A stretch of 64,000 nt of DNA from an uncultured Gallionella sp. (GTDB taxonomy: Bacteria > Pseudomonadota > Gammaproteobacteria > Burkholderiales > Gallionellaceae): NCBI GenBank assembly GCA_964385275.1, contig CAYLOK010000009.1, positions 1,368 through 65,367 of the forward strand. The letters are read 5' to 3'. The number at the start of each line of letters is the position of its first letter. Positions within the stretch are counted from its first letter, which is position 1. Both the position numbers and the translations under genes were made by a program. Positions 56,994 to 64,000 of the stretch are shown here, one piece after another. The notes beneath the pieces were generated by a model. The model was not told where the DNA came from. It made no database searches and saw nothing but the letters and a program-made list of their open reading frames with translations.

Positions 56994-58469
56994 TTACAAC
57001 GCAGCCGCAATTTCCCTGAAGCTATTCAAACCCGCTTCAAGATTTTCGATGATTTCCCCCGCCAGCACATCCGGCTCCGGCAAGTTATCCAGATCGGCGA
57101 GGCTCTTGTCCTTCAACCAGAAAATATCCAGACTGGTTTTGTCGCGCGCGATGATTTGTTCGTAGCTGAATTTGCGCCAGCGCCCTTCCGGGTTTGCGGC
57201 TTCGTTCCAGCTTTCTTTGCGCTCATGGCGGTTGAGCGGGTTGTAGCTGGCGATGAAATCCTGCAAATCCTCAAAGCGCAGCGGTTTCTTTTTCAACGTG
57301 TGATGGGTGTTGGTGCGGTAGTCGTAGAACCACACCTCTTTCGTCCACGGTTCTTTGCTGGCGGCGTGGTTATCGAAAAACAGCACATTCGCCTTCACGC
57401 CGTTGGCGTAAAAGATGCCGGTGGGCAGGCGCAGGATGGTATGCAGCTCGGTGGTTTCCAGCAGCTTCTTGCGCACTGTCTCGCCTGCGCCACCTTCGAA
57501 CAGCACGTTGTCCGGCACGACGACCGCCGCGCGTCCGGTGGTCTTCAGCATGGTGCGGATGTGCTGCACAAAGTTGAGTTGCTTGTTGGAAGTGGTCGCC
57601 CAGAAATCCTGGCGGTTGTAAGTCAGATCATCCTTCTCCTGCTCGCCATCATCATTGGTGAAGCTCATCGAACTCTTCTTGCCGAAGGGCGGATTCGCCA
57701 GCACGTAGTCGTAACGTTTGCCGCCATCGGCCACCAGCGCATCGTTGGGCGACACCATGCTGTCTCCGTCGATCTCGCCGATGTTGTGCAAAAACATATT
57801 CATCAAGGCGAGGCGGCGCGTACCCGCCACGATCTCGTTACCGTTAAAGGTATCGTGTTTGAGGAATGCCTTCTGCGTCTTGTCCATCTTGTGTTCGGAC
57901 ACCAGAAAATCATAGGCCGCCAAAAAAAAGCCGCCCGTACCACAGGCTGGATCGGCGATGGTTTTCATTGGCTCAGGGCGCACGCATTCCACCATCGCGC
58001 GGATCAGCGCGCGCGGCGTGAAGTATTGCCCCGCACCCGACTTGGTATCTTCCGCGTTGCGTTCCAGCAAGCCCTCGTAGATGTCACCCTTCACATCCGC
58101 GCCCATCGTCACCCACTGCGTTTCGTTCACCATATCGATCAGGCGATACAGCTTGGCCGGGTCTTGAATCTTGTTTTGCGCCTTGGTGAAAATCGTCCCC
58201 AGCATGCCCGGCTTATTGCCCAGTTCGCGCAACAGCGTCACGTAATGCACCTCCAACTCCGCACCGCGCTTGGCCTTCAGGCTCTGCCAGTTGTACTCGT
58301 CAGGAATACCCACCTTGCGGTTATACGGCGGCTGGCTGTATTCATCTGCCATTTTCAGGAAGATCAGATAAGTCAGCTGCTCCAGATAGTCGCCGTAGCC
58401 TACGCCGTCGTCGCGCAACGTGGTGCAGAAACTCCAGACTTTGGAAACGATAGATGCGGTTGCGTTCAT
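56994..58469 (-). CDS. hsdM: Type I R-M methyltransferase subunit (locus 2)
   Basis: VWSFCTTLRDDG, GAGQYFTPR, DPACGTGGF and NPPF. ATG at 58469 has a GGAGG SD; the ORF-track extension to 58640 is translated repeat DNA. Confidence 0.95.
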   Translation of the reverse strand: MNATASIVSKVWSFCTTLRDDGVGYGDYLEQLTYLIFLKMADEYSQPPYNRKVGIPDEYNWQSLKAKRGAELEVHYVTLLRELGNKPGMLGTIFTKAQNKIQDPAKLYRLIDMVNETQWVTMGADVKGDIYEGLLERNAEDTKSGAGQYFTPRALIRAMVECVRPEPMKTIADPACGTGGFFLAAYDFLVSEHKMDKTQKAFLKHDTFNGNEIVAGTRRLALMNMFLHNIGEIDGDSMVSPNDALVADGGKRYDYVLANPPFGKKSSMSFTNDDGEQEKDDLTYNRQDFWATTSNKQLNFVQHIRTMLKTTGRAAVVVPDNVLFEGGAGETVRKKLLETTELHTILRLPTGIFYANGVKANVLFFDNHAASKEPWTKEVWFYDYRTNTHHTLKKKPLRFEDLQDFIASYNPLNRHERKESWNEAANPEGRWRKFSYEQIIARDKTSLDIFWLKDKSLADLDNLPEPDVLAGEIIENLEAGLNSFREIAAAL

Positions 58470-58538
58470 GGGTTTTCCTCCAGAAGGCCGCCATTCGGAA
58501 ATAGGTTTGGTATCAATCGCCCGCGAGAAATTAAGTGC

Positions 58539-58671
58539 ATCATTCCCGAAGCTCTCACCCCCGTCATTCCCGAAGCTCTCACCCCCGTCATTCCCGAAGC
58601 GGTTCTGATCGGGAATCCAGCCTTTAACCGGCAAAAACAATAGATCCCCGATAAAGACATTCGGGGATGAC
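58539..58671 (+). repeat. CGTC-type palindromic doublet preceded by two 24-bp half-units (element C)
   Basis: RTCATTCCCGAAGCTCTCACCCCC x2, then GTCATTCCCGA-N12-TCGGGAATCCAG, a spacer, and GATCCCCGA-N10-TCGGGGATGAC. Confidence 0.9.
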
Positions 58672-58701
58672 GGGCTGGCTGCGAAAGATCGGCTGGGCTA
58701 T

Positions 58702-58992
58702 TCAAACCAATTCTTCCCACAAATCTTTCCAAGTCGGATTCATCTTCTCGATCAAATCTATTTTCCATTGCCTGTTCCATTTTTTAAGTTGCTTCTCTCG
58801 TTCAATCGCTGTCAGCATCTGTTCATGCAACTCGTAATACACAAGCGAGTGAACTGTATATTTTTCCGTGAACCCTTCAACCAGATCATTCTTATGCTGC
58901 CAGATACGCTGAATCAGATTGCTGGTTACACCGATATACAAAGTGCCGTTGTATCCGCTCGCCAGAATATAAACCGCAGGCTGTTTCTCCAT
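58702..58992 (-). CDS. Stand-alone GIY-YIG nuclease (YhbQ/UPF0213-like)
   Basis: AVYILAS...TLYIGVTSNLIQRIWQHK, LVYYE and AIEREKQLKKWNRQWK. Confidence 0.92.
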   Translation of the reverse strand: MEKQPAVYILASGYNGTLYIGVTSNLIQRIWQHKNDLVEGFTEKYTVHSLVYYELHEQMLTAIEREKQLKKWNRQWKIDLIEKMNPTWKDLWEELV

Positions 58993-59012
58993 TGCACAAC
59001 CTCCATCAATCT

Positions 59013-59225
59013 GTCATTCCAGAAGTGACCCCACCCCGCCATTCCCGAAGCTATCACACCCCGTCATTCCCGAAGCTATCACACCCCGTCATTCCCGAAG
59101 CGTTCCCACCCCGTCATTCCCGAGACGGCTCCAACCCCGTCATTCCCGAGACGCTTCTTATCGGGAATCCAGCTTCTAACCCACCAAAACCATGGATCCC
59201 CGATAAAAACATTCGGGGATGACGG
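59013..59225 (+). repeat. CGTC-type palindromic doublet preceded by five 25-26 bp half-units (element B)
   Basis: Units start at 59013, 59038, 59063, 59088 and 59113 (GYCATTCCMGAR...CCCC). A full arm spans 59139-59172 and a second arm TGGATCCCCGA-N10-TCGGGGATGAC follows. Confidence 0.92.
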
Positions 59226-59249
59226 CTTAGACTTTGCTCAAGGTGTCAT

Positions 59250-60086
59250 TTATTTCTTCGCCAAACTTTTCTTCGCCGGAGGCAAATAGTTTTCAGCCGA
59301 AACCAGCTTCTTGCCCGTCTTGCCTTCCAGCTCCAGCCGCGCTTTTTTGGCGATACCGCCGCCGGTCTTCGCCGCAGCCTCATTCTCATTCATGCCCGTG
59401 GCATCCATGCTCTCGGCGATCTGGCGCGTGGAAAGCTCTGCCAGCGCGGTAAAAATCAATTCGGCTTCGCTCATGTGATCGCGCAGGTTTTGCGACTTCA
59501 GGCCTTTCATTTCCTTGTGCGCCTTCACATCCACTTCCGCCCATTCCTGATGAATGATGTTGGTCAGGATCGCGTATTCCTCGCCTTCCTTGATGTCATG
59601 CTCTTTCCAGTAATCGGTCAGCTTGTTGCGCGTCTCCTGCCCCGTCATGCGCTGCTGTATCCACTTCTCGCTGCGCCCGTGCTTCTGCCAGGTCTCGCGG
59701 GCTCGATCCAGAGAACGGGCGGGGTCAGCCATCTCCTGCATCCGCTCATAGCCCACCTTCGCCAGCCACAACTTAATCGGCTCCGCCTTCGGGCTGGGCA
59801 CGGACTGCACCAACCGCAGCAAAGCCTCGGCAGTGGCGACATCGGTGAGGTAATTCTTGCCATCTGCGGCAGGCAATTTCAGTCGGTGACAATTTGTCAC
59901 CGACTGACTGCCTTCCTTGCTCAGTCGCTCTTTCAGCTTGTTCCAATATTTGCGCGCTGTTTGATAATCAGGCTGCTGGGTCAACACCTGCACAATATCC
60001 ACCACCGAAAACCACCAGGTTTCCGTGGCCTCGTCATACACGCGACGGATTTTATGCTCTTCAAAAATGGCTGGTTGAGGTTGCAT
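59250..60086 (-). CDS. BRO-N domain DNA-binding protein (antirepressor-like)
   Basis: KIRRVYDE...WWFSVVDIV, RKYWNKLKERL, LRLVQSVPSPKAEPIKLWLA and NLRDHMSEAELIFTALAE. Confidence 0.85.
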   Translation of the reverse strand: MQPQPAIFEEHKIRRVYDEATETWWFSVVDIVQVLTQQPDYQTARKYWNKLKERLSKEGSQSVTNCHRLKLPAADGKNYLTDVATAEALLRLVQSVPSPKAEPIKLWLAKVGYERMQEMADPARSLDRARETWQKHGRSEKWIQQRMTGQETRNKLTDYWKEHDIKEGEEYAILTNIIHQEWAEVDVKAHKEMKGLKSQNLRDHMSEAELIFTALAELSTRQIAESMDATGMNENEAAAKTGGGIAKKARLELEGKTGKKLVSAENYLPPAKKSLAKK

Positions 60087-60103
60087 GGTCAGGACTCCTT
60101 CCC

Positions 60104-60217
60104 GTCATTCCCGCGCCCTCTTTCGTCACCCCCGCGAAGGCGGGGGTCCATGCGATTCAAAAACTGGATTCCCGCCGGAGCCTGCCCTCGAATGAATTTG
60201 TCGGGGGCGGGAATGAC
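60104..60217 (+). repeat. CGTC-type palindromic doublet with one half-unit (element A)
   Basis: GTCATTCCCGCGCCCTCTTTC, then GTCACCCCCGCGAAGGCGGGGGTCCA-TGCGATTCAAAAAC-TGGATTCCCGCC-[insert]-GGCGGGAATGAC. Confidence 0.88.
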
Positions 60218-60239
60218 GTTATAGGCGTGCAAAGTATGG

Positions 60240-61886
60240 CTAACCACGCTTGCTCCTTTTGCCAACCGCCGAGCTTTCCCCGGCAGTTGCCCGCTCCGCC
60301 TTGATGCGCGCCAGCAGTGCCGATGCGGGTTCGTCGTGCGGGTCTTGCGGCACCAGTTGGCCGGAGAAGGCTTTTTTCAGGATGGACTGGCGCAGGGCTT
60401 CGGCTTGTTGCAACGAGGTGGTGATGGTTAGTTCGAGTTGGTCAACTTCGGACAACCTTGCTGCAAGGCTTTCAATAACCACTTCAGATTCAGCACATGA
60501 ACAAATGGGCACGACTATTGATCGAATTCTTTCTTGCCCAATGTTGCGCATGGACTCTTGATTGCCTGTCGATAGCTGCATGATTTGTTTGCGCCCAAAG
60601 CGACTGCCAAGATACTGAAGGAAATATTCCTGAGAGAAGCCATCAAATCTGATGCGAAGTGTTTTATCGCTCAGCATGATTTTCTTGGTTACCTTCCTTG
60701 CAATGACGCAGGCTCCAACGAGATCAATGGTGTTTGCTCGGCTTAGAATGAAATCACCGTTCCTAATTAAATAGGCTTCATTTTCTTTCGATGCGTCAGT
60801 GCAAGTCTTGCTTTCCGATTCATCATATTCGCCCCACGTCACCGCACTTACTTTCGCGACTCCGATTTCATTTGCACGTGGTTCGCGTTCGTCACACTTA
60901 AAACTTTTCCCCGCATCAATCGACTCAATGAAGTCACCCAATTTGCACCATCCCCACCCCTGCGGCAGTTTTGGCAATTCGGCCCGCTCTTCGGCGGTGA
61001 GTGGCGGCAGGGGTTTCGGGGCTTTGGGTTTCCCAGCACGCTGGACAAGGCTGCCTTGTTTGACGTTGGCTTGCCAGTCGGCGAGTTGTTGCTGGTAGCG
61101 TTGCGCGCGCTCTTGCTGGATGCGCTTGAGCAAGGCCTGCCCGCCGGCAGGCTGGGCATCGGCGATTTCCAAACCCATATCGTCATTCCCGCGAAGGCGG
61201 GAATCCAGTTTTTCATTCGCATGGACTCCCGCCTTCGCGGGAGTGACGGAATTTTTAGTGCGGCGTTCCTCGCGCCACTGCGCAGTGAGCTTGCCCTCGA
61301 AGGCGTGTTTCAGCAAGGCCTGGCGATACACCTTGAGCTGCGCGCGGGCGGTCTTCAGGTTCTCAATGCCCTTGTCCAACTCGGAAAACAACTCCTCGAT
61401 TTTGACGACGATGCGGTGTTGTTCGGGAAGCGGCGGCAATGGAAAAGAAAACGAAGCAATATCGTTAGGCCGCACAGCCGGATAGAGTGCACCTTGTACG
61501 CATAGGCACATCTTCTCTATGAACTCCCGCGTATGCACCAGATAAAATAGAAACTTTGGCTCAACCCTTTTCGAGCGCAAAACATGAAATCCAGTCGAAC
61601 CAATCGCACCATGAAACTCAGATGTTGCCATTGCTATTGCATTCAGGTTTGGACGGGTCATTGAGATGAGAACATCTCCGCTTTGAAGCACTTGCTTAGC
61701 TCGGCTTGGTGCGGCTGTTGATTCTAGAACCTTAGCATCTGAGATACGTTTTTGCTCACGGTCTATGCTGCTTATATCAACATAGATAAATTCACTACTG
61801 ACTGGCCCGCTCCGGTCCACAGCTTCATCAGCCACTTCGCCAAGAATAGCCATAGACCAGCCATCTGGCAGCTCCACTTCACTCAT
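60240..61886 (-). CDS. hsdS: Type I R-M specificity subunit (locus 2) with long central linker
   Basis: ELPDGW, LPPLPEQHRIVVKIEELFSELD, HAFEGKLT, LPKLPQGW and ILKKAFSGQLVPQDP. The ATG overlaps the vapC stop. Confidence 0.94.
   Translation of the reverse strand: MSEVELPDGWSMAILGEVADEAVDRSGPVSSEFIYVDISSIDREQKRISDAKVLESTAAPSRAKQVLQSGDVLISMTRPNLNAIAMATSEFHGAIGSTGFHVLRSKRVEPKFLFYLVHTREFIEKMCLCVQGALYPAVRPNDIASFSFPLPPLPEQHRIVVKIEELFSELDKGIENLKTARAQLKVYRQALLKHAFEGKLTAQWREERRTKNSVTPAKAGVHANEKLDSRLRGNDDMGLEIADAQPAGGQALLKRIQQERAQRYQQQLADWQANVKQGSLVQRAGKPKAPKPLPPLTAEERAELPKLPQGWGWCKLGDFIESIDAGKSFKCDEREPRANEIGVAKVSAVTWGEYDESESKTCTDASKENEAYLIRNGDFILSRANTIDLVGACVIARKVTKKIMLSDKTLRIRFDGFSQEYFLQYLGSRFGRKQIMQLSTGNQESMRNIGQERIRSIVVPICSCAESEVVIESLAARLSEVDQLELTITTSLQQAEALRQSILKKAFSGQLVPQDPHDEPASALLARIKAERATAGESSAVGKRSKRG
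61182..61247. repeat. CGTC/dRS3-like palindromic doublet in frame in hsdS
   Basis: GTCATTCCCGCGAAGGCGGGAATCCA-N14-TGGACTCCCGCCTTCGCGGGAGTGAC: 26-bp arms with 2 mismatches, 66 nt in total, translated VTPAKAGVHANEKLDSRLRGND. Confidence 0.92.
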
Positions 61887-62272
61887 CACCACACGACCGG
61901 AACTGAATAAGCTGCGAACGCATGATCGACAGAGACGATGGTCATGCCTTCCACAACGGCCTGGGCAATGATCAGGCGGTCAAATGGATCTCTATGATGC
62001 TGTGGTAATTGTTCCAGATAGCTTATGTGCGATAACTCGATCGGCAATAATTTTATGTTATTTTCAAGCGTATTTTTATTCACCAACTCTTCAATTGGCA
62101 TGGCTAATGATAATTTATCGAGCTGGCTTTTGATTTGCATTTCCCAAGGCGAAGCCATACTCAAATAAAATTCATGCGCGCCCGAGCTGCATAAGTCCTG
62201 CACTGTTTTGGAAAGTCGTTCAGGGTCATCGTTGAGCCAGAGAAAAACGTGGGTGTCCAGCAACAACTTCAT
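61886..62272 (-). CDS. vapC: PIN-domain (VapC-like) toxin
   Basis: MKLLLDTHVFLW, SMASPWEMQIK and HRDPFDRLIIAQA. Confidence 0.9.
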   Translation of the reverse strand: MKLLLDTHVFLWLNDDPERLSKTVQDLCSSGAHEFYLSMASPWEMQIKSQLDKLSLAMPIEELVNKNTLENNIKLLPIELSHISYLEQLPQHHRDPFDRLIIAQAVVEGMTIVSVDHAFAAYSVPVVW

Positions 62273-62493
62273 AACTTGCCTTCCAACCAAAAACTTTCTG
62301 GCAATGGCTCATTAAAGTCATCGCTCATTTTTATAAGCCCTTGAAATAATCCCAATTTTAAGGGCTTAGATGGCTGTGCGATTTCTTCATACATGACGAT
62401 TACTCGCGCTTTATGTGCTTGTATCGTTTTGGGTAATTGCAAATGAATTTGCTGGTTGAAATCAATTTCCACTGGGAATTCGAGGGCGTGCAT
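62269..62493 (-). CDS. Putative antitoxin partner of the PIN toxin
   Basis: A 74-aa gene overlapping the PIN gene. The C-terminus KLGLFQGLIKMSDDFNEPL is typical of DUF2281-like partners. Confidence 0.7.
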   Translation of the reverse strand: MHALEFPVEIDFNQQIHLQLPKTIQAHKARVIVMYEEIAQPSKPLKLGLFQGLIKMSDDFNEPLPESFWLEGKL

Positions 62494-62552
62494 GGCGGTT
62501 TTCCTTTCAAACTAGGTTCATCTGGATTGTAGCAAGCTATCCGTGCCGGCAG

Positions 62553-62601
62553 ATAGGAAGCCGCATTTTATAGCGGCAAGTCGGGTTAAAACCCGCCCTA
62601 C
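62553..62601. repeat. GTAG-type REP with degenerate partner hairpin
   Basis: 62580-62601 reads GTAGGGCGGGTTTTAACCCGAC on the minus strand. The adjacent hairpin GCCGC-ATTTTATA-GCGGC is at 62560-62577. Confidence 0.65.
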
Positions 62602-62607
62602 ATATAT

Positions 62608-64000
62608 TCATGCAACCAGTACCTCGTTGAGTTCATCCAGCAACGTATCCATCTTCGCGCCGAACAACTGATACATTTTGCCCAGCCCGCCCTGTCCGAA
62701 TGGTGGATCTTCAAGCTCATCACGTTCAATGTGAAATGAAATAGCAACGTGGTCGCGCACCATGCGCAGCCAGTCCATTTGTTCCTCGTTGAATTTTTCT
62801 GTGCCGCCGGAGTGGTGTTTCATAATCCAGTTTCTAAAGTTGCGGCGCACGGTGGCATCAAAGTCGGTGAGCGTTTCATCCATGCCGCACACGCGGCGGA
62901 TGAGCGCCACGAGTGCAGTCAACTCACTGACTGGATTCCCGCCTGCGCGGGAATGACGAGCTGTTTGGGCTTCTAAGCGTTGATAAGCTTGCCACACATA
63001 CAAGGGGGCGAGCTTGGGTTTGTCGGTTTTGAGTTTATCCAGCACCTGGCGGATCAGGTCGTAGCTGAGTTCGCGCCTGCGATACGGCTGGCTGAAGAAG
63101 ATGGTGAGGGCGGCGATGTTGTCTTGGTTCGCCTTTAAGTATTCGGCGAATTCGTCGGCGATGGCTTGCGCGTGGTCGGCCATGTTCGCTTCCCAGCCCG
63201 CGCCCAACACGGTGTCGAGTGTGTCGTGGTCTATGGTTTGTTCTTTGTCGCGGCGGATGGTGTCGAGCAGTTCCACCAGTTCGCCATTCAGCACGCTGGC
63301 GACTTCTTGTACCAATTGCTGCTGCGCCAGTTCGCGTTTTGCGTCGCCGGGGTCTGTGCCGATTGGCTGGCCTGCGAGTTGCAGCGCGCGGGCTTCGATG
63401 TTGTCGGCATCAATCGCGCCGAATAGCTGGCCGACGAGTTGGTTGAGTTCCAACCCGCCTGCGGCTTGCCGAATCATGCGCTGGTCGTCGGCATCCAGTT
63501 GTTTGTTGAGCCGCGCCAGGCGTCCGGCCAGAGATGACACGGTGTCTTCGTCCGTCGCGCCCATCATCACCTGCATCGCCAAATCTTTAAGCGGCACGGT
63601 GGGTTTGGTGATGAGCGGCTGGCTGGCGGTCTTGAGTGATTTGGTGACGCCGATGGCATCGACGATGACATAGTGGGTCTTGGCGCTGACGGCGGAGGGG
63701 GTGACTTTGCGCAGGTCGTCGATGTCCAGCGTGCGCGTGCCGCGCCCTTTCATCTGCTCGAAGTAGTTGCGGCTTTTCACGTCGCGCATGAACAACAGGC
63801 ATTCCAGCGGCTTCACGTCCGTGCCCGTGGCGACCATGTCCACGGTGACGGCGATGCGCGGGTAATACTCGTTGCGGAATTGCTGCAATACCGACTTGGG
63901 GTCTTCGTCGGTTTTGTAGGTGAGCTTTTTGCAGAACGCATTGCGCTCGTCGAATTCCTCGCGCACGGTCTGGATGATGTCGTCGGCGTGGCTGTCGGTC
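62608..64000 (-). CDS. hsdR: Type I R-M restriction subunit (locus 2), 5' part outside the window
   Basis: RIAVTVDMVATGTDVKPLE, SRNYFEQMKGRGTR and an EcoEI-like C-terminus (QGGLGKMYQLFG...LDELNEVLVA). The frame is open to the window edge. Confidence 0.92.
   Translation of the reverse strand, partial: TDSHADDIIQTVREEFDERNAFCKKLTYKTDEDPKSVLQQFRNEYYPRIAVTVDMVATGTDVKPLECLLFMRDVKSRNYFEQMKGRGTRTLDIDDLRKVTPSAVSAKTHYVIVDAIGVTKSLKTASQPLITKPTVPLKDLAMQVMMGATDEDTVSSLAGRLARLNKQLDADDQRMIRQAAGGLELNQLVGQLFGAIDADNIEARALQLAGQPIGTDPGDAKRELAQQQLVQEVASVLNGELVELLDTIRRDKEQTIDHDTLDTVLGAGWEANMADHAQAIADEFAEYLKANQDNIAALTIFFSQPYRRRELSYDLIRQVLDKLKTDKPKLAPLYVWQAYQRLEAQTARHSRAGGNPVSELTALVALIRRVCGMDETLTDFDATVRRNFRNWIMKHHSGGTEKFNEEQMDWLRMVRDHVAISFHIERDELEDPPFGQGGLGKMYQLFGAKMDTLLDELNEVLVA
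62931..62957 (-). repeat. Single CGTC/dRS3-like palindrome in frame in hsdR
   Basis: Minus strand reads GTCATTCCCGCGCAGGCGGGAATCCAG (ATTCCC-N8-GGGAAT), translated RHSRAGGNP. Confidence 0.9.

Follow-up and report, generated by a model that had tools for sequence, protein, structure and literature searches.

A probable Ssn nuclease module with long-loop CGTC-tagged hairpin doublets in an uncultured Gallionella sp.

A stretch of 64,000 nt from an uncultured Gallionella sp. (GenBank assembly GCA_964385275.1, contig CAYLOK010000009.1, positions 1,368 to 65,367; hereafter the window) carries a small GIY-YIG nuclease gene, here called ssn, between two directly repeated pairs of palindromes. In an initial annotation, the surrounding repeats were proposed to owe their spread to this nuclease. 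The locus is, with high confidence, an Ssn module: a nuclease gene of a published GIY-YIG family together with its cognate CGTC-tagged hairpins, in this case a long-loop doublet variant. The pairing of gene and hairpins has itself been described before (Chenal et al. 2025, Nat Commun 16:2388; PMC11893778), as the annotation had allowed in a caveat on prior reports; the locus is a further example and opens no new field. The gene and its flanking repeats are shown to be gained and lost together as a unit; that the nuclease causes this is a hypothesis.

The nuclease gene and its flanking hairpins

The Ssn family (cd10448) is paired with hairpin repeats: the 28-nt Neisseria NTS (CGTCATTCCCGCGMAVGCGGGAATCYRG), which includes dRS3, and a broader class named Ssn-related motifs (SRM) (PMC11893778). 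Homologues of NMV_0044 (ssnA, 94 aa, cd10448) have an SRM nearby in 71% of the cases and on both sides in 42%, and ssn is present in 81% of those genomes in which SRMs exceed 200 (PMC11893778). The N. meningitidis SsnA protein binds the CGTC-tagged hairpin as single-stranded DNA (ssDNA) only and cuts it a few nt upstream, leaving the reverse strand, duplex DNA and RNA uncut; cutting is abolished by Y6A, Y17A and E64A, the identity of the hairpin loop is not essential, and three further Ssn homologues showed the same activity (PMC11893778).

The 96-aa product of the window gene is, like the members of this family (~94-100 aa), a single-domain GIY-YIG protein: PF01541 is its sole family match in Pfam (E 1.8e-14, residues 6-78). 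A GGAGG ribosome-binding site lies 7 nt 5' of the ATG. The protein is 65% identical to an N. gonorrhoeae SsnA homologue (BLASTP E 3e-45; tblastn 2e-33), an intact copy from the N. gonorrhoeae chromosome (filed as a plasmid in PLSDB) and not the N. meningitidis protein itself; these values lie below the limit of E < 1e-10 to Neisseria SsnA by which Ssn homology was judged (PMC11893778). The SsnA residues Y6, Y17 and E64 align to Y8, Y19 and E66 of the window protein, conserved at 100%, 99% and 100% in 82 homologues, in which R29 is likewise invariant or nearly so. Relatives of the window protein number in the thousands; the best 120 are 80-100% identical to it, the named ones among them coming mainly from Nitrosomonas and Gallionellaceae. 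A sequence search of solved structures returned spurious WD40 matches only and no structure for the family, and NCBIfam gave only a sub-threshold match to TIGR01453, the model for group I intron endonucleases, with 16.9 bits over residues 6-40 where 56.05 are required. The PLSDB entries NZ_CP119140.1, NZ_CP119142.1 and NZ_AP026896.1 are filed as plasmids yet are chromosome-sized (2.17 Mb, N. gonorrhoeae; 4.9 Mb, A. caviae).

This stand-alone gene is bracketed, as initially annotated, by palindromic doublets in the same orientation, which form a 94-nt direct repeat (58580-58673 and 59132-59225, 86% identity). The order within a doublet is hairpin 1 (GTCATTCCCGA-N11-TCGGGAATCCAG), a 22-nt spacer and hairpin 2 (GATCCCCGA-N9-TCGGGGATGAC), the second loop having 9 nt instead of the 10 nt first given. 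Hairpin 2 is an inverted relative of hairpin 1, with the GTCA tags of the doublet facing outward, and either strand is foldable as two hairpins or as a single long hairpin. Oriented hairpins are thus present on both sides of the gene (58587-58671 and 59139-59223); as ssDNA the gene-upstream doublet folds with z = -4.7 (+ strand) and -6.1 (- strand), and the gene-downstream doublet with z = -3.1 and -3.6. The two doublets differ at 13 positions, all in loops, spacer or flank, and at none of the 43 nt that make up stems, tags and tails (Fisher p = 1.7e-4). With one mismatch at most, GTCATTCCCGA has 18 occurrences in the window where chance would give 1.15, and 0 of 100 shuffles reached 18. On the + strand, tandem arrays of half-units, absent from the initial annotation, stand before both doublets (Table 1); a half-unit is made up of tag, 5' arm, a portion of the loop (~10 nt) and a CACCCC-like flank.

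The flanking hairpins have CCCGA stems, loops of 11 and 9 nt and the spacing ATTCCC-N15-GGGAAT. The dRS3 consensus, suggested for them at first, does not apply in its strict form, the spacing being N15 instead of N8; ATTCCC-N8-GGGAAT is fitted only by the window copies at 61181 and 62931. Related copies had been placed at 60104, 61182 and 62931, and they are there, though their stems are CCCGC and not the CCCGA found beside the gene. Compared with the published Ssn/NTS pairs (PMC11893778), the window module shares the ~95-aa single-domain GIY-YIG protein with its catalytic Tyr/Tyr/Glu, and hairpins on both flanks with a 5' CGTC tag, stems opening with A-T and a CCA(G) tail, canonical NTS being close by. 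It differs in its CCCGA stems and 9-11-nt loops, in having a complete direct doublet on each side, where the published arrangement is one inverted hairpin per side, in the tandem half-unit arrays that accompany the doublets, and in its host, an uncultured groundwater betaproteobacterium-like organism in which the module is known from sequence. The likeness extends to the superfamily of CGTC-tagged repetitive extragenic palindromes (REPs; PMC3733652), which has the same CGTC/TGTC tag, 8-9-bp stem opening with A-T and CCA tail, the same tag-outward dimers, and in-gene copies that preserve the reading frame; the published loops are 4-5 nt, as in the window copies at 61181 and 62931 (4 nt each), whereas those of the window flanks are 9-11 nt.

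Homologous loci, and gain and loss of the module

The association of gene and hairpins was followed in a genome scan that yielded 80 loci (63-94% identity), the phyla including Planctomycetota, Chloroflexota, Nitrospirota, Spirochaetota, Actinomycetota and Paceibacterota; four loci sharing part of the window neighbourhood were left out and 76 were counted. The density of the tag-head motif is 5.9 per kb in forward orientation in the 100 nt upstream of the gene, 5.6 per kb in reverse orientation in the 100 nt downstream, and ~0.1 per kb more than 500 nt away, an enrichment of ~50-fold beside the gene. The motif is found upstream in 56 loci, downstream in 55 and on both sides in 46, and in the 11 motif-less loci the hairpins keep the GTCA tag and TCCA tail and differ in their stems. 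When GTC-tagged hairpins were sought independently of the stem, within 260 nt of the gene, 72 of the 76 loci had one against 12 of 128 control windows. The enrichment of flanking palindromes across genomes predicted in the initial annotation is therefore found here as well as in the published survey (71%), and repeat number tracks gene presence as it had expected, by the published figure of 81% for genomes with more than 200 SRMs (PMC11893778).

A typical module reads CGTCATTCCCGCGnAGGCGGGAATCCA, ~20 nt, the gene, a few nt, and then TGGATTCCCGC...GCGGGAATGACG. Of 83 module ends, 60 have C and 20 have T immediately before GTC, and G is strongly depleted in the ten nt preceding the CGTC tag, where SsnA makes its cut (3-14 of the 83 ends per position, 42 modules). 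Half-unit arrays 5' of a complete hairpin occur at 13 of the 80 loci (among them L010, L011, L016, L020, L028, L033, L039 and L042) against 1 of 130 control regions, with periods of 9-27 nt; mirror-image 3' arrays were seen at 0 of the 80. These arrays, which are not mentioned in the Ssn paper (PMC11893778), are confined to the tag side, where SsnA cuts, and this appears to be new. They may be scars of repeated cutting and repair, a plausible origin because the 5' side is the cutting side of SsnA. Among the homologues, those of L002, L021, L032 and L033 have an internal stop in frame, and pseudogenes or coordinate artefacts are both possible.

The limits of the module are visible where unrelated taxa are compared: DNA homology extends to about -36 to -47 on one side and +29 to +31 on the other, the positions of the outer tags, and in a pair of Planctomycetota loci the doublet-gene-doublet (88% identity) is all that matches. 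The ssn module is shown to have passed between phyla together with its hairpins. In Azospirillum lipoferum 4B a ~520-bp doublet-gene-doublet stands between sufB and sufC, a spacer that is uninterrupted and free of gene and repeats in A. ramasamyi, A. oryzae, strain B510, A. thermophilum and A. brasilense. In S. meliloti (L090) ssn lies between gltA and lpxB, and a partial second ssn (3' end and downstream hairpin) immediately precedes the complete module, showing that modules can occur in tandem. At the window site itself, one 284-nt contig of run X5 (another groundwater metagenome, 3.3x depth) joins 58598 to 59135 and retains half-units and one doublet but no gene, whereas ssn is present on further contigs from X5. 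Contigs of runs X3 and X6 match hairpin 1 or hairpin 2 alone and diverge exactly at 58587, 58620, 59193 and 59223-59225, indicating that the long-loop hairpins are present elsewhere too. Long-loop CCCGA hairpins also stand beside homologues in Anaerolineae, Thiotrichaceae, Bermanella, Zoogloea and Spirochaetia loci, and the long-loop type is therefore a recurrent subfamily. The behaviour of the module as one unit, seen in the Azospirillum empty sites and the X5 contig, appears to be new, and the empty sites are evidence for a joint gain of gene and repeats.

Several points weigh against assigning the locus to the Ssn modules and against its unit behaviour. The published SRM pattern, HGTCWYN(0-2)YYVSBRHN(0-5)WNVSBRGN(0-2)RNCYNB, matches at 60124, 61181, 61221 and 62931 in the window but misses every hairpin that flanks the gene, the loops there exceeding the length it allows; it serves for searching and does not define the repeats. 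SsnA lost its activity when the stem sequence was altered with the structure preserved (PMC11893778), and the cognate specificity of the window protein for long-loop hairpins we infer only. The 76 loci are the best matches to the window protein and no random sample of the family, and independent cases are fewer than 76 because several loci form syntenic sets. The exact junctions of the Azospirillum insertion are unreadable owing to divergence of the surrounding intergenic sequence, and the gene-less X5 form is a single low-depth contig from a mixed community of which assembled contigs only were available. With these points counted, an Ssn module remains the favoured assignment. Its flanking hairpins appear to be a new, long-loop variant missed by the published pattern, and counts of Ssn-associated repeats are probably underestimates.

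What the nuclease may do to the repeats

The proposal that the nuclease cuts at the hairpins is backed by the published biochemistry on close homologues, given the 65% identity and the conserved catalytic residues (PMC11893778). By analogy with SsnA, the tag strand, 5'-CGTCAT...CCAG-3', would fold into a hairpin once the DNA is single-stranded, and the window protein would bind this hairpin and cut a few nt 5' of the tag; the opposite strand, RNA and duplex DNA would be spared. Since both tags of a doublet face outward, the cuts would fall just outside both ends of the doublet (or of the module), on opposite strands.

Whether such cuts move the repeats is the harder question. A tentative answer is that Ssn is the enzyme that mobilises the CGTC hairpins and doublets, doublet-gene-doublet being the autonomous element of a REP-RAYT analogue in which host repair or ligation completes the move. 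The likeness to REP/REPIN-RAYT systems (REPtrons) lies in one small nuclease gene between its own hairpin repeats, in dispersed gene-free inverted doublets, and in the recognition of ssDNA hairpins with a conserved tetranucleotide at the foot; RAYT is an HUH/Y1 (IS200/IS605-type) transposase with a covalent intermediate and the tag GTAG, whereas the window protein is GIY-YIG only and the tag is CGTC. In the Ssn paper the NTS-ssnA-NTS arrangement was likened to an insertion sequence, and the REP/RAYT parallel was posed as a hypothesis in the Discussion (PMC11893778).

Mobilisation by Ssn is favoured by the position of the gene within or between the same inverted pairs that also exist as gene-free doublets, by the gain of the module as a unit in Azospirillum, by the single NTS gained within hsdR in the window lineage, by the restriction of half-unit arrays to the cutting side of the enzyme, and by stems that vary among lineages while tag and tail stay constant. 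Enzyme and repeats also coincide taxonomically: species with CGTC REPs overlap the species of the homologues (A. lipoferum, S. meliloti, Sphingobium, Neisseria), and most SRM-rich genomes carry ssn, as quoted above. A dedicated transposase is lacking for the CGTC-tagged REPs according to the survey of Di Nocera et al. 2013 (PMC3733652). Several observations stand on the other side: none of 42 modules has a target-site duplication, the dispersed window copies are CCCGC-stemmed and the gene flanks CCCGA-stemmed, ssn is missing from 19% of the repeat-rich genomes, and the sole role shown in vivo is reduced transformation, not transposition (PMC11893778).

GIY-YIG enzymes hydrolyse DNA without a covalent intermediate, and strand transfer would require other factors. 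That Ssn is the long-missing mobilising enzyme of the whole CGTC-tagged REP superfamily, nicking outside outward tags and moving or copying hairpins, doublets and module, is a possibility we would advance with reserve. If it were true, the tag-side half-unit arrays would be in vivo footprints of Ssn nicking, and single-doublet and doublet-gene-doublet alleles would interconvert via a circular form made of the gene plus one doublet.

A host role, the control of incoming or recombining ssDNA, is as open as mobilisation. Here Ssn would be a domesticated device for ssDNA restriction or the control of recombination, as proposed for Neisseria, and its place in a restriction-modification (R-M) island would reflect a role in defence or gene flow; like mobilisation, this is a candidate to be held in doubt. 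Deletion of ssnA raises transformation with NTS-containing DNA five-fold (PMC11893778). The window gene lies in a type I R-M operon beside vapBC and a Bro-N gene, the same R-M placement recurs in Nitrosomonas mobilis, N. oligotropha and a Syntrophales metagenome-assembled genome (MAG), the Planktothrix gene lies between MmeI and DISARM genes, and the Ssn protein is under strong constraint. Against this, homologues also occupy unrelated sites (the suf operon, gltA-lpxB), which looks like insertion wherever it is tolerated, and the association with defence islands is a putative one, seen in individual cases. Moreover, the window organism is not known as transformation-competent, and identities of 63-94% across phyla point to frequent horizontal transfer and not to long host residence.

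A homing-type selfish gene is improbable. In such a scheme the repeats would spread otherwise, and ssn would copy itself into existing doublets after cutting, via recombination between hairpin arms. The gene is the exact spacer of a doublet at many loci, the direct doublet-gene-doublet is the product expected when a gene-plus-doublet circle meets a resident doublet, and both the X5 contig with its single doublet at the window site and the partial second gene copy in tandem in S. meliloti could be accommodated. The scheme is weakened because the Azospirillum empty sites are repeat-free; in addition, the homology arms would span ~30 bp only, and the gene is low-copy while the repeats run to hundreds, the reverse of what is expected of a repeat-invading gene. 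The I-TevI-type GIY-YIG homing endonucleases share with the window protein the catalytic core and a selfish-element flavour; the window protein has no DNA-binding domain or intron context, and its characterised relatives cut ssDNA, not duplex. Coincidental adjacency, or an artefact of a repeat-rich metagenomic contig (short-read contigs do break at these repeats), is refuted by independent ENA and JGI assemblies, by recurrence in isolate genomes and across phyla, and by motif counts far above chance, which leave it next to no probability.

For the Ssn module as assigned here, the half-unit arrays on the cutting side are possible in vivo traces of the enzyme, and the spread of CGTC repeats, a question since 2013, is now directly testable with such modules. 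Ssn enzymes are under development as site-specific ssDNA cutters, and a variant acting on a different hairpin could widen the toolbox.

Other repeats and gene neighbourhood

The contig that holds the window is 135,933 nt long and comes from a groundwater metagenome; JGI data contain an independent assembly of the locus. The minus-strand gene order is hsdR, a vapB-like gene, vapC, hsdS, the Bro-N gene, the GIY-YIG gene, hsdM and an MFS transporter. Within the type I R-M operon the ssn module has the Bro-N gene on one side and hsdM on the other. This operon (56994-64000) is broken by three insertions: the vapBC-like pair (61886-62493), the Bro-N gene and the ssn module.

Table 1 Features of the ssn module and its surroundings in the window (positions of the 64,000-nt stretch).
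Feature	Coordinates	Strand	Details or basis
ssn gene, 96-aa single-domain GIY-YIG nuclease (probable Ssn / cd10448-type family)	58702..58992	-	Open reading frame, PF01541 and homology
Doublet upstream of ssn	59139..59223		Hairpin 1 59139-59172 (tag +), spacer 59173-59194, hairpin 2 59195-59223 (tag -)
Doublet downstream of ssn, direct copy of the upstream one	58587..58671		Hairpin 1 58587-58620, spacer 58621-58642, hairpin 2 58643-58671
Five tandem 25-26-nt half-units, the first degenerate	59013..59138	+	5' of hairpin 1, gene-upstream doublet
Two tandem 24-nt half-units, the first with a degenerate ATC tag	58539..58586	+	5' of hairpin 1, gene-downstream doublet
Composite canonical repeat between Bro-N gene and hsdS	60104..60217		Half-unit 60104-60123, NTS-type hairpin 60124-60151 (+), reversed enlarged-loop unit 60164-60217
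Canonical NTS-type doublet, in frame within hsdS	61181..61248		61181-61208 (+), 61221-61248 (-)
Single canonical NTS (CGTCATTCCCGCGCAGGCGGGAATCCAG), in frame within hsdR	62931..62958	-	SRM pattern match
hsdM, next gene downstream of ssn (context, outside the module)	56994..58469	-	Gene calls
Bro-N domain gene, immediately upstream of the module (context)	59250..60086	-	Domain match

All copies of the CGTC-tagged superfamily are packed into the last 5.5 kb of the window, i.e. the R-M locus, and no repeat of the superfamily was found in positions 1-58500. The copies at 60124, 61181/61221 and 62931 have the CCCGC stems of canonical NTS and 4-nt loops. The doublet at 61181-61248 folds at -31.3 kcal/mol (z = -9.6), and the hsdS reading frame (60240-61892, minus strand) runs through it, the doublet contributing ~23 residues (VTPAKAGVHANEKLDSRLRGNDD); in the 550-aa HsdS product Pfam recognises one target-recognition domain only. 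The NTS at 62931-62958 lies in the C-terminal region of HsdR and is lacking from hsdR of both N. mobilis and N. oligotropha, orthologues compared with which the window gene is net 20-21 nt longer at this site; judged by these orthologues, it is probably a recent gain in the window lineage.

The start of hsdM is placed at the ATG at 58469 by the ENA call and a GGAGG site, giving 491 aa; the longer frame of the JGI call (56994-58640, 548 aa) is hsdM lengthened by read-through of the repeat. Besides the window, ssn lies inside type I R-M loci in L003, L004 and L056, and the DISARM gene next to it in Planktothrix (L092) is drmA. A Bro-N homologue (348-1142, 35% identity) stands beside ssn in a Zetaproteobacteria MAG (L012), in which two ssn genes are 1.1 kb apart. 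In L001 and L002 (3291-3340) only the ribosome-binding site and the first ~20 nt of hsdM remain downstream of ssn; this remnant abuts a hairpin directly and is followed by unrelated sequence, indicating that the rearrangement that removed hsdM had its breakpoint at a repeat.

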